From Candidatus Saccharimonas sp. (lineage in GTDB: Bacteria; Patescibacteriota; Saccharimonadia; Saccharimonadales; Saccharimonadaceae), in contig DZCW01000002.1 of NCBI GenBank assembly GCA_022736555.1, positions 25,070 through 89,069 on the forward strand: DNA of 64,000 bases. The letters run 5' to 3'. Position numbers and translations under genes: made by a program. Position 1 is the first letter of the stretch. Each line of letters starts with the position of its first letter. Below the pieces are notes generated by a model. That model was not told the DNA's origin, did not search any database, and worked only from the letters and a program-made list of their open reading frames with translations. Positions 43,908 to 50,735 of the stretch are shown here, in pieces.

Positions 43908-44288
43908 GTGAGAACTGGTATACTAGTTATAGTTATGGATTTAAATAAATATATCGTTAGTGATAATACAGGCAAGCCGTTTCATAGTAGCGGAATTGCC
44001 AGAATTAACAGAGGCGATAGGTTGGGCGTAGATACTAATGTATCATTTAATCAACGGCAACAAATCAACGGCAATCGACAATTAATTAATGATTATCACA
44101 GTTCTGTAATAGGTAATACTCGTAGTGTTTTGGCCGCCAGGCCAGTTAGCCCGGAAGCGATAGATAGTCGTTTAAGGGTGCCAGCTAGACAGCCAATCCA
44201 AAATCCTCGTAATACTACGCAGGGTATAACTATACCGCCACGTAGTTTTAACGAGCCTAATGCCAGAGGCTATAACCCTTACTCCTAG
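43908..44288 (+). CDS. Hypothetical small Arg/Asn/Gln-rich protein
   Basis: 126-aa ORF from a GTG start (an alternative ATG lies at 43935). No motif recognised. Its stop overlaps the murA stop in CTAG. Confidence 0.4.
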   Translation: MRTGILVIVMDLNKYIVSDNTGKPFHSSGIARINRGDRLGVDTNVSFNQRQQINGNRQLINDYHSSVIGNTRSVLAARPVSPEAIDSRLRVPARQPIQNPRNTTQGITIPPRSFNEPNARGYNPYS

Positions 44289-45814
44289 ATCTCGCGGAAT
44301 GTTTCAATATCAGCGCCTAAAGTATTTAGACGATTAGCGAAATCTTCATACCCACGGTTTATCGAATAAACATTTCGTAGTATCGAATGACCAGGTGCGG
44401 CCAGCATCGCTAGCATTATAACAACAGATGGGCGTAGGGCTGGAGGTGTTACTATATCGGCCGGTTTCCATTTGGTTGGTCCGGTAATATAAACACGATG
44501 TGGGTCGACTAGCTCGATATTAGCGTTCAATTTACTAAGTTCGGTGAAATAAATAGCTCGGTTTTCGTATGACCAGTCGTGAACCATGGTTCGGCCATTA
44601 GCCACAGTGGCAATCAATCCTAGGAAGGGCAAGTTGTCCATATTTACGCCCGGGAATGGCATACTGTGTAATTTGTCCTTGGGCGCATTTAGCTTTGAAT
44701 GGAGCACGGTGATGTCTACTAGGCGCGTTTCATTATTACGAGCCTTATATTCGTCGCTTATATTATATTGCAAACCCATGCTACTGAGGATGGATAATTC
44801 TATTTCGATGAATTCAATCGGCGCACGTTTGACGGTAATTTCAGAATTAGTGACTATACCGGCTGCGATTAAGCTCATGGCCTCGATCGGGTCTTCGCTA
44901 ATATAATATTCGACATTTTTATTAATACTACGAACACCACGGATGACTAGGGTGGTTGTTCCAATACCATCGATCTTGACACCTAATTTTTGTAAATAAA
45001 AACACAAATCTTGAACCATGTAATTTGGACTGGCATTACGGATAGTAATTGTGCCGTCGTAAAGGGCAGCGGCCATTAGAACATTTTCGGTAGCGGTATC
45101 GCTACGTTCAGTTAGTAATATGGTATGGTCGACGGTTTTTTTGGTGACAGTAGCGTTATAATACTCTGATTTGGTCTCGATACTTAAACCGAACGGTGCC
45201 AAACCAGCTAGATGGGGTTCGACAGTTCTAACGCCCAGGTTACACCCGCCAGCGAACGGTAATTTAAATTCTCGGTACTGGTGTAATAGAGGGCCAAGCA
45301 GCATGATGATCGTTCGTGTGCGTTTAGCTGAATCGATATTCATATCGTTCAGTTTTAATCTGGCTGGCGGGATAATTTCTAGATCGTTTTTATCATTTAA
45401 CCAGCGAATTTTAACGCCAATACTCTGCAGGACTTCGATAATTCGATTAACCTCTTCGATCCTAGCGACACGTCGTAGGGTTGTTGTGCCGTGGTTCAAT
45501 AAGCTAGCACAAAGTAGTCCAACCGCAGCATTTTTGCTGGTTTTTACTTCGATTTCACCGGATAGTTTTTTGCCACCATTAATACGAAAGTCGATTTTAC
45601 CTGATTGGTTCAAACTAACAAGTTCACTTGACAAAACGTCGCTAATACGGGCCAGCATCTCAAGGCTGATATTTTGTCCACCTTTTTCAATACGATTTAT
45701 AGCACTTTGGCTAGTGCTAAGCGCTTCGGCTAGCTGGGCCTGAGTTAGCCCACGTGATTGTCTGTTCTCTTGAATTAATGTACCGATTTTAACTTTGTAA
45801 TCATCATTCGTCAT
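44285..45814 (-). CDS. murA: XRE-type HTH domain fused to UDP-N-acetylglucosamine 1-carboxyvinyltransferase (MurA)
   Basis: Residues 1-65 read IQENRQSRGLTQAQLAEALSTSQSAINRIEKGGQNISLEMLARI (HTH_3-like). The MurA body follows from KIDFRINGGKKLSGEIEVKTSKNAA, with the active-site loop FAGGCNLGVRTVEPH. No internal start codon at the junction. Confidence 0.85.
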   Translation of the reverse strand: MTNDDYKVKIGTLIQENRQSRGLTQAQLAEALSTSQSAINRIEKGGQNISLEMLARISDVLSSELVSLNQSGKIDFRINGGKKLSGEIEVKTSKNAAVGLLCASLLNHGTTTLRRVARIEEVNRIIEVLQSIGVKIRWLNDKNDLEIIPPARLKLNDMNIDSAKRTRTIIMLLGPLLHQYREFKLPFAGGCNLGVRTVEPHLAGLAPFGLSIETKSEYYNATVTKKTVDHTILLTERSDTATENVLMAAALYDGTITIRNASPNYMVQDLCFYLQKLGVKIDGIGTTTLVIRGVRSINKNVEYYISEDPIEAMSLIAAGIVTNSEITVKRAPIEFIEIELSILSSMGLQYNISDEYKARNNETRLVDITVLHSKLNAPKDKLHSMPFPGVNMDNLPFLGLIATVANGRTMVHDWSYENRAIYFTELSKLNANIELVDPHRVYITGPTKWKPADIVTPPALRPSVVIMLAMLAAPGHSILRNVYSINRGYEDFANRLNTLGADIETFREI

Positions 45815-45949
45815 CTCTCGATCCTATATCATCCATGATATAAAGTCAATAAATAACATAACCTTATTTAGATGTTGAATTTACTATATAAAGCGTTTGG
45901 TTCTTCGACTGGTGTATAATTAATACAAATTATTAAGGGGGTATTAGCT

Positions 45950-47227
45950 ATGAAGGATGAGAAAATAGCAGTGCTAATTGCTAGCGAAGAAGCTAGGCAG
46001 CGTGACGGTCTAGAATTGATACCTAGTGAAAATTATGTCAGTCGAGATGTTTTGACAGCGCTAGGTAGTGTTTTTACTAATAAATATTCCGAAGGATACC
46101 CCGGAAAGCGTTATTATGGTGGCCAAGATTACACCGATCAGGTAGAACAACTGGCAATCGATCGTGCTAAGCAATTATTTGGAGCTGATCATGCTAATGT
46201 CCAACCACATTCTGGAGCACCAGCTAATGAAGCAGTTTATCATGCATGGCTAGAACCCGGTGACACTGTTCTGGCGATGGATTTGGGCCATGGTGGTCAT
46301 TTGACCCATGGAGCGCCGGTAACTCGCAGTGCTCATTTATATAACTTCATACGTTATAAAATGAAGGACGTCGCGACTGGTGAAATCGATTATGACGAAT
46401 TGCGCGCCTTAGCTCTAAAACATAAACCAAAAATTGTTTTGGCTGGATTTAGTGCTTATCCTAGAGAATTAGATTATGCCAAGTTTGCTGCAATCGGCAA
46501 TGAAGTCGGAGCGCTGCTGATGGCTGATATGGCACATATCGCTGGATTGATTGCTGCCGGAGTGGTCAAGAACCCGTTCGATTATGGGTTTCATGTCATA
46601 ACTACGACTACACATAAAACTTTGCGCGGGCCACGTGGCGGTATGATTTTGTCGAAGGGCATCGTCAGTAACCCATTAAAAGCTCCTGAAAAAACACTCG
46701 AGAATATCCCAACTTTGATTGATCGAGCGGTCTTTCCTGGCACCCAAGGTGGTCCACATATGCATTCAATTGCAGCCAAGGCGGTTGCTTTTTACGAAGC
46801 CTTGCAGCCCGAGTTTAAGCAATATGCTCAGCAGATCCTGGACAACACTTCCACTTTGGCTGACGAATTAAAAAAGCGCGGTTTTCAGCTAGTGACGGGT
46901 GGGACTAGTAACCACCTGATATTAGTCGATATCTATAAGAGTTTTGGAGTTGATGGCAAGGTGGCTCAAACCACTCTGGATGCGGTTGGGTTGAATGTTA
47001 ATGCCAACGCTATGCCTGATGACACTTTACCTCCATTTAGGCCTGGTGGTATCAGATTAGGTACCCCAGCTATAACGACCCGAGGTTTTAAGACCAAGGA
47101 TATGGAGCAGATTGCCGAATGGATGAAACTAGCCATCGATAATCGCGATAATCCTAAGGAATTAGCTAAACTCAGAGAACAGGTTATTGCAATCGCCAGA
47201 CAATTTCCACTACCTAGCGATAAATAG
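45950..47227 (+). CDS. glyA: Serine hydroxymethyltransferase
   Basis: TTTTHKTLRGPRGG PLP-lysine motif. Full length. Confidence 0.95.
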   Translation: MKDEKIAVLIASEEARQRDGLELIPSENYVSRDVLTALGSVFTNKYSEGYPGKRYYGGQDYTDQVEQLAIDRAKQLFGADHANVQPHSGAPANEAVYHAWLEPGDTVLAMDLGHGGHLTHGAPVTRSAHLYNFIRYKMKDVATGEIDYDELRALALKHKPKIVLAGFSAYPRELDYAKFAAIGNEVGALLMADMAHIAGLIAAGVVKNPFDYGFHVITTTTHKTLRGPRGGMILSKGIVSNPLKAPEKTLENIPTLIDRAVFPGTQGGPHMHSIAAKAVAFYEALQPEFKQYAQQILDNTSTLADELKKRGFQLVTGGTSNHLILVDIYKSFGVDGKVAQTTLDAVGLNVNANAMPDDTLPPFRPGGIRLGTPAITTRGFKTKDMEQIAEWMKLAIDNRDNPKELAKLREQVIAIARQFPLPSDK

Positions 47228-49715: not shown

Positions 49716-50735
49716 CTATATTTCTAATGGCTCTTGTTGTATCTGTACTTGAAAAGTATCGTGGACGGTTTTGATTATCTCGTCGCGAGCTTTTGCTAGA
49801 TCGTTATACGATTTCGCCGATTCGTTCACTAGGACTAGAGCGTTTTTATCATAGATACGTATGCCGTGTATAAGTTTGCCTTTTAATCCAGCGTGTTCGA
49901 TTAGCCAACCGCTAGGTATTTTGTAACTTCCATCATTCATTTCAAAAACTGGTATGTCGTTGTCAATTGCGCGTAGCCCATCCATTTGTTGTTTTCCAAC
50001 TACGGCATTCTTGAAAAATGAGCCAGTATTAGGCAAGATGATGGGGTCGGGGAGTTTATTCTTCCTGATCTCGATTATGGCATCACGGATTGTTTTTACA
50101 TCGAATGCCGTTATATTATGCTTGTCTAGATAATTTTGCAGTGCGCTGTAAAATGGTGGTTCTGGCTGTTTTTTTGATAATTTTAGTGTGATATCAGTAA
50201 TAATATATCGTCCAGTTGAAACGCCTCGAAAAATACTGTATCTGTATGTGAATTCGCAGTCGGTGTTTGTTAATTCTACAAAAGTTTTTGTCTTAGTGTC
50301 ATAGGCGGTCAATGATTGCATAGTGTCGGCGATTTCTTGGCCATAAGCACCGACATTTTGAACTGGAGTGGCACCAGCTGTGCCCGGTATGGCTGACATA
50401 GCTTCGATACCGCTAAGTTTCATATTTATGGTGCGTTCAACGACTGAATCCCAATTCTCACCAGCGCCGATCTTTATAGTTGTGTAATTTACATCATCAT
50501 CTATAACTTCGAAGCCTGGGATATGAATATGGACTATAATTCCATTAAATCCCTCGTCCCTAGCAATAATATTGCTACCACCACCTAACACGAATATAGG
50601 TAGTTTCTGTGACGAAGCGCTATTGCAGGCCTCAACGACATCGTCCTTGGTATAAACTTCTGCGATAAAACTAGCATTACCACCGAGTTTCATAGTAGTA
50701 AGATCTTTGAGTGAAATATTTGTTAGGGTTTTCAT
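49716..50735 (-). CDS. murB: UDP-N-acetylenolpyruvoylglucosamine reductase MurB
   Basis: FAD-binding N-domain (LGGGSNII) and a MurB C-terminal domain (AGWLIE-like SGWLIEHAGLKG). Confidence 0.9.
   Translation of the reverse strand: MKTLTNISLKDLTTMKLGGNASFIAEVYTKDDVVEACNSASSQKLPIFVLGGGSNIIARDEGFNGIIVHIHIPGFEVIDDDVNYTTIKIGAGENWDSVVERTINMKLSGIEAMSAIPGTAGATPVQNVGAYGQEIADTMQSLTAYDTKTKTFVELTNTDCEFTYRYSIFRGVSTGRYIITDITLKLSKKQPEPPFYSALQNYLDKHNITAFDVKTIRDAIIEIRKNKLPDPIILPNTGSFFKNAVVGKQQMDGLRAIDNDIPVFEMNDGSYKIPSGWLIEHAGLKGKLIHGIRIYDKNALVLVNESAKSYNDLAKARDEIIKTVHDTFQVQIQQEPLEI

Follow-up and report, generated by a model that had tools for sequence, protein, structure and literature searches.

A MurA with an XRE-type helix-turn-helix head, and a candidate operator in its own promoter, in Saccharibacteria and Actinomycetota

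We analysed a stretch of 64,000 nucleotides of contig DZCW01000002.1 from Candidatus Saccharimonas sp. (assembly GCA_022736555.1), hereafter called the window. On its minus strand, a single open reading frame of 509 amino acids, with an ATG start and zero internal stops, encodes a protein that begins as a helix-turn-helix (HTH) domain of the XRE/Cro-C1 type and continues as MurA, the first committed enzyme of cell-wall synthesis. We refer to this protein as HTH-MurA. The gene is divergent from glyA, which encodes serine hydroxymethyltransferase, and an 18-bp perfect palindrome lies between the -35 and -10 boxes of the murA promoter. The features of the locus are collected in Table 1.

Table 1. 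Features of the HTH-MurA locus (positions in the window)
Feature	Position	Strand	Basis or remark
HTH-MurA gene	44285..45814	-	509 codons + stop; genome's only MurA
XRE/Cro-C1 type HTH domain, aa 1-62	45629..45814	-	Pfam HTH_3 at aa 14-62 and predicted helices
Recognition helix TSQSAINRIE, aa 34-43	45686..45715	-	Alignments across Patescibacteria and Actinomycetota
Flexible linker, aa 63-73	45596..45628	-	Low pLDDT; least conserved segment
MurA (UDP-GlcNAc 1-carboxyvinyltransferase) domain, aa 74-509	44288..45595	-	NCBIfam profile, structure alignments
Codon of Cys191 (= E. coli MurA Cys115; PEP adduct, fosfomycin target)	45242..45244	-	Alignment
-10 box TAGGAT of murA promoter	45821..45826	-	Consensus promoter scan
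Candidate operator TATATCA-TGGA-TGATATA, 18-bp perfect palindrome	45825..45842		Direct reading, script, sequence search
-35 box TTGACT of murA promoter	45844..45849	-	Consensus promoter scan
glyA, serine hydroxymethyltransferase, divergent neighbour	45950..47227	+	Profile match, 562 bits

The two halves that a preliminary description of this DNA, made from its letters alone, had recognised within the one frame are both matched by profiles. The Pfam profile HTH_3 (PF01381) recognises residues 14-62 with an E-value of 2.7e-13 and 50.2 bits against a gathering cut-off of 23, in agreement with the canonical HTH_3/XRE module seen there, and the profile EPSP_synthase covers residues 79-496 (E 4e-49). 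The MurA part, described earlier as complete and carrying the catalytic Cys loop, is matched from residue 76 to 506 by the NCBIfam MurA subfamily NF006873 (340.7 bits, over the cut-off of 297); the equivalog TIGR01072 gives 320.7 bits, under its stricter cut-off of 392.7. In alignments to the structures 5u4h and 3r38, K94, C191, R196, D393, R419 and R461 align with the E. coli MurA catalytic residues Lys22, Cys115, Arg120, Asp305, Arg371 and Arg397, and all six are invariant in both of our homologue alignments, A1 and A2.

An AF2 model built from 35 sequences (mean pLDDT 87.7) shows a head of four XRE-type helices (residues 3-20, 25-31, 36-43 and 51-61), a linker with pLDDT below 50 at residues 63-71, and a body with the two-domain inside-out alpha/beta barrel of MurA, which aligns with solved MurA structures in Foldseek with target-normalised TM scores of 0.86-0.92 and E-values of about 1e-38. 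By comparison with the PDB, the nearest solved relatives of the head are the dimeric operator-binding proteins HipB, C.AhdI, C.BclI, ClgR, CylR2 and SinR. The fused murA is the sole PF00275 gene of the genome (692 kb in 9 contigs, 96.6% complete), and the same genome encodes MurB, at 49716-50735 on the minus strand of the window, and four Mur ligases. On this gene content, the fused protein is expected to supply the MurA activity of the cell, and its MurA half is very probably a working enolpyruvyl transferase, the only one feeding peptidoglycan synthesis.

A rival explanation of the fusion is that an assembly error or a frameshift has joined two separate genes. The junction itself carries no trace of a second start, as the preliminary description had noted: there is no Met between M53 and about residue 157, a TTG codon (Leu68) lacks a Shine-Dalgarno sequence, and the linker is about 10 residues long. 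Among the matches listed, 120 of 120 independent protein clusters (82-98% identity), drawn from NCBI, JGI, ENA and Logan assemblies and named plainly 'MurA' of Saccharibacteria, are 506-530 amino acids long and contain both Pfam domains. Fused open frames that align from residue 1-10 to about residue 505-509 were found in 23/24 other genomes of the genus and 14/16 other genomes of the order, the exceptions being fragmentary assemblies or genes cut at a contig end. The fusion, whose distribution across Patescibacteria had been left as a question, is therefore conserved across the genus and the order; further lineages of Patescibacteria, several in number, and Actinomycetota isolate genomes have it as well. 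Conservation of the continuous frame of about 509 residues makes the frameshift explanation untenable, and we consider the chance of an artefact negligible. Two 'HTH-only' genes, in G036 and G226, were considered as possible cases of MurA loss with a retained head; both are truncated at or near the end of the available sequence, which we read as a contig end, and this idea was rejected. In each detail that we checked, the preliminary description of the gene was accurate.

The head is as well conserved as the enzyme. In two alignments, the mean identity to the window protein was 59% and 72% for the HTH domain against 58% and 69% for the MurA domain, and 28% and 56% for the linker. Within the recognition helix, T34-S35-Q36-S37-A38-I/V-N-R41-I42-E43, the residues S35, Q36, S37, A38, R41, I42 and E43 do not vary in either phylum, and T34 hardly does. 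The stretch T-S-Q-S-A-I-x-R-I-E-x-G parallels T-T-Q-Q-S-I-E-Q-L-E-N-G of the 434 repressor, and on this correspondence Q36, S37 and R41 would fall on its base-contacting positions 28, 29 and 33. From this pattern of conservation, the HTH domain is, in our reading, under selection for reading DNA. No convincing co-variation was seen between the recognition helix and the half-site discussed below; residues 34-43 are identical although the half-site is TATATCA in Patescibacteria and TATCTCA in Actinomycetota. Differences between the heads of the two phyla lie in helix 1, at residues 9, 15, 16 and 20.

Autoregulation at the divergent murA/glyA intergenic region had been proposed earlier, and this region (45815-45949) contains TATATCATGGATGATATA, a perfect 8-2-8 inverted repeat. 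A repeat finder did not report it, probably on account of the mere 2 nt between its arms; direct reading, a script and a sequence search all showed it. On the coding strand, the sequence ahead of the gene runs TTGACT-T-TATATCATGGATGATATA-GGAT-CGAGAG-ATG. The 17-nt spacer between TTGACT and TAGGAT is filled by the palindrome, whose final two bases also begin the -10 box. From one half-site centre to the other the distance is 11 bp, or roughly one turn of the helix. Among species the four central bases vary freely, as expected if protein does not contact them. Since the -10 box ends 6 nt ahead of the ATG, the murA transcript probably has no leader, or almost none.

In the 692-kb genome the exact palindrome is found once, where about 0.01 copies would be expected by chance from base composition, and there is one copy with a single mismatch. 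Single half-sites are frequent (204 in the genome). Sites with two mismatches number 11, all inside coding DNA, and their frequency equals that of control patterns and of other spacings. In this genome-wide mismatch scan no further targets that would make up a wider regulon were found in the genome, save one conserved site on contig C3.

We then asked how the site is distributed over fused and unfused genes. From Patescibacteria we compared 42 fused genes (48-100% identity) with 24 unfused ones that belong to the same MurA subclade (43-57% identity), and a site was counted when it lay within 150 nt upstream with at most two mismatches. It was present at 35/42 fused and 1/24 unfused loci, compared with 11 of 2100 shuffles. 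In an enlarged set that includes Actinomycetota, with one degenerate position allowed per half-site, the counts were 73/83 fused against 1/23 unfused genes. Within the genus of the window, 23/26 genomes have the site with at most one mismatch. All 14 exact palindromes found belong to this genus; 13 of them adjoin a murA of given coordinates, and the remaining one is in G534. A tree built from only the MurA domain implies at least 10 changes between the fused and the unfused state. In 9-10 phylogenetically independent fused/unfused pairs, the operator went the same way as the head in 6.8, the opposite way in 0.5 and was equal in 1.7 (median sign-test p 0.03). The proposal of autoregulation is supported by a palindrome that lies in the murA promoter and tracks the HTH across two phyla.

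The sole unfused murA with an operator-like site (L055, G315:C10) has TATCTCATTTAAGATATA between TTGACA and TATAAT, 37 nt before a GTG start; this site may be a relic left after a recent loss of the HTH. We also looked for a split form of the system, with a separate HTH gene beside an unfused murA. An XRE-like ORF lies upstream in only 1/24 loci (L048), and it encodes a longer, different protein, so this form was rejected.

A scan of species-representative genomes retrieved the fused gene at 61-66% identity in many actinomycetes (loci L114-L153; G535, G537, G539), including Streptomyces, Kitasatospora, Actinacidiphila, Knoellia, Aeromicrobium, Brachybacterium, Actinopolymorpha, Nonomuraea, Longispora and several uncultured Actinomycetota. 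At most of these loci, TATCTCA-N4-TGAGATA ends 10-11 nt ahead of the start codon, and the surrounding DNA has 65-74% GC. Base composition or a generic promoter would hardly explain why an 18-bp AT-rich palindrome keeps a fixed position in DNA so rich in GC. The fused gene is the only MurA-level match in Knoellia subterranea, K. sinensis and Aeromicrobium massiliense, while a canonical MurA is encoded alongside it in Streptomyces (including S. rimosus, S. azureus and S. polygonati), Kitasatospora, Brachybacterium and others. This suggests that the fused gene has displaced the canonical MurA in Knoellia and Aeromicrobium.

In the unrooted MurA-domain tree the Actinomycetota sequences form one clade (SH-aLRT 100), beside or within Saccharimonadaceae and inside the radiation of Saccharimonadales. 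A tree with a Saccharimonadaceae-type clade that excludes Actinomycetota was not rejected by the AU test (p 0.75), so that both a position nested inside Saccharimonadaceae and one as their sister are compatible with the data. The simplest reading of the tree suggests that the whole module, consisting of enzyme, repressor head and operator, passed once and anciently between Saccharibacteria and the phylum of their actinobacterial hosts, with a direction that depends on the root.

Altogether, these observations make it likely, in our judgement, that HTH-MurA is a bifunctional protein, both the enzyme and the autorepressor of its own gene, similar in logic to BirA. The C-terminal 436 residues would act as MurA and the N-terminal 62 as a 434-repressor/Cro-type HTH carried on a flexible linker of about 10 residues. 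Two such heads, probably of a dimer, would occupy both half-sites of TATATCA-N4-TGATATA. Protein bound there would take up the whole 17-nt spacer and the first two bases of the -10 box, and should for this reason keep RNA polymerase off the sigma-70-type murA promoter. As HTH-MurA builds up, the operator would become occupied and transcription of the gene would fall, so that the amount of the first committed cell-wall enzyme would be set by negative feedback. That the heads bind DNA, that they dimerise and that the effect is repression are steps that we infer from sequence. A further possibility is that the protein is a ligand-gated trigger enzyme. MurA moves from an open to a closed form on binding UDP-GlcNAc and PEP and forms a tight 'dormant' complex with UDP-MurNAc; if movements driven by substrate or product changed how the two heads are presented, promoter occupancy would report the precursor pool and not just the amount of enzyme. 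The sequence gives no signal for or against such switching and so offers no support for this extension: the MurA domain has no column that sets fused proteins apart, and the linker is predicted to be flexible. We hold the extension to be rather doubtful.

Several points weigh against autorepression. MurA is usually monomeric, no dimer interface was identified in the fused protein, and a search for MurA-domain columns that separate fused from unfused proteins, as a surface for docking or dimerisation might, found none. Because the motif was derived from fused loci, the fused/unfused comparison is biased in their favour, and 10/83 fused genes have no recognisable site within 150 nt. In addition, an extended -10 element resembling the right half-site, TGATATA(A/T)T, is present elsewhere among the promoters of these genomes, so that this half-site may be conserved in part as a promoter element; only the left arm and the symmetry are specific to an operator. 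The fused genes without a clear site, the TGATATAAT-like extended -10 elements that other promoters carry (in relatives, that of glyA for instance) and the 204 half-sites of the genome speak for another view: the palindrome would belong to the promoter as such or serve a different regulator, and the HTH would do something else, such as unspecific tethering to the nucleoid or a protein-protein contact. Against this view, only murA has the left arm at exactly 4-nt spacing in its own genome, the site is absent upstream of 22/23 unfused orthologues, the AT-rich palindrome has been retained in Actinomycetota DNA of about 70% GC, and the positions of the HTH that would contact bases, by analogy with the 434 repressor, are invariant. 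We therefore regard this view as improbable, even though it deserves more weight than the other alternatives.

Slightly less probable still is that the protein binds the palindrome and activates its own promoter. XRE-family activators do exist, and two of them, the controller C proteins and ClgR, are among the nearest solved relatives of the head. Such activators bind upstream of or beside the -35 box, whereas the present site is inside the -35/-10 spacer and overlaps the -10 box of a promoter with an optimal 17-nt spacer and a good -35 box, which is the classical geometry of steric repression. The MurA-like part could also be an inactive ligand sensor, as in BzdR, in a protein that is solely a transcription factor. 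The score below the TIGR01072 cut-off would fit this idea, as would the canonical MurA found beside the fused gene in Streptomyces and several other actinomycetes. All catalytic residues are kept, however, the NF006873 cut-off is exceeded, and the fused protein is the sole MurA here, in other Saccharibacteria, in Knoellia and in Aeromicrobium, with the rest of the pathway present; an inactive sensor is thus very unlikely. Autorepression by a working enzyme remains the reading that we prefer.

The site on contig C3 mentioned above (C3:21142-21159, outside the window; L044 2143-2160) reads TACATCA-N4-TGATATA and is the only other intergenic near-match of the genome. Another species of the genus has conserved it at the orthologous position (G011:C55:13858-13875; L177 2059-2076), in both cases between a gene for a GT2-like membrane glycosyltransferase and tRNA-Val(GAC). 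The 4-nt spacer of each of the two sites is identical to that of the murA operator of the same genome (TCCA and TCTA). The C3 site stands in a promoter-like geometry (TTACAC, 18 nt, TATAAC) directed at the antisense strand of the tRNA-Val. It is also located some 17 nt upstream of the -35 box that would serve a conserved divergent ORF of 44 amino acids (L044 1953-2087, minus strand), which is apparently leaderless and has zero Pfam matches. On the same contig, a weak T-box-like match (L044 2402-2534, plus strand; 37.5 bits against a gathering score of 93, E 7e-6) lies directly upstream of thrS. Tandem operator-like palindromes, 33-42 bp apart, are present in some Saccharimonadales (G446:C32:17381/17423, G503:C56:3156/3198 and G480:C9:315/348).

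As to the neighbours of the gene, the likely -10 box of glyA is about 75 nt away from the murA palindrome. In several relatives (L006, L007 and L009) the divergent glyA starts only about 72-80 nt from the start of murA. The glyA genes of relatives have an extended -10 of the TGATATAAT type of their own, and the operator half-site resembles this common strong -10 element of these genomes. On the other side, a convergent ORF of 126 amino acids (43908-44288, plus strand) shares a palindromic CTAG end with murA, the stop codons overlapping over 44285-44288. No NCBIfam match was found for it; since other genomes of the genus conserve its C-terminal end, ...NPY(S/A), it is probably a real gene.

If autorepression is confirmed, this MurA would come with repressor head and operator included, and feedback on transcription would be part of the enzyme itself. 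Throughout Saccharibacteria, whose small genomes seem to have few regulators, HTH-MurA is the usual MurA, and it extends to several other Patescibacteria lineages and many Actinomycetota. The system is conserved, widespread and unannotated: since public records name the protein plainly 'MurA', its DNA-binding half is invisible to their users. Full-text literature searches did not retrieve a published description of the fusion, and the Streptomyces 'MurA2' (SCO5998) has been treated simply as a second MurA in two papers, neither of which mentions an HTH (PMC12161575, PMC8346170). The prediction is easily testable because the module is present in cultured, non-pathogenic actinomycetes, as the sole MurA in Knoellia and Aeromicrobium and as a second copy in Streptomyces. 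Nanosynbacter-type Saccharibacteria, which can be grown in co-culture, also carry HTH-MurA.

The controls described for canonical MurA, namely feedback inhibition by UDP-MurNAc, ClpCP/ReoM-dependent proteolysis in Firmicutes and activation by CwlM in mycobacteria, are post-translational and act through separate partners or ligands; none of them is known to involve binding of MurA to DNA. The fold of the head is common to the phage 434 repressor and Cro, HipB, C.AhdI, ClgR, SinR and CylR2, and the candidate operator, a palindrome with free central bases, would be a further likeness; these 434-type and XRE dimers, however, form by way of small C-terminal or intrinsic interfaces and have no enzyme attached. 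The Azoarcus sp. CIB protein BzdR, with an XRE HTH, a linker and a shikimate-kinase-like domain, is similar in having an N-terminal HTH_3 and a short linker ahead of an enzyme-derived domain. The BzdR-type profile PRK08154 matches only residues 3-69 of HTH-MurA (E 2.5e-7, 30.2 bits against a cut-off of 204) and not its full length, and the C-terminal domain of BzdR is a ligand sensor, whereas that of HTH-MurA is the only MurA of the cell. In logic, a parallel is offered by the trigger enzymes BirA (the biotin protein ligase and bio-operon repressor of E. coli), PutA and NadR, which, like HTH-MurA, join an active enzyme and a DNA-binding domain in one polypeptide and use a palindromic operator overlapping the promoter of genes of their own pathway, as predicted here. 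BirA uses a winged HTH and PutA a ribbon-helix-helix, while HTH-MurA has an XRE/Cro-type HTH. In BirA and PutA, DNA binding depends on the catalytic or ligand state, a dependence that is at most conjectural for HTH-MurA; and, unlike in BirA and PutA, its only clear target is its own gene and the enzyme concerned is MurA.

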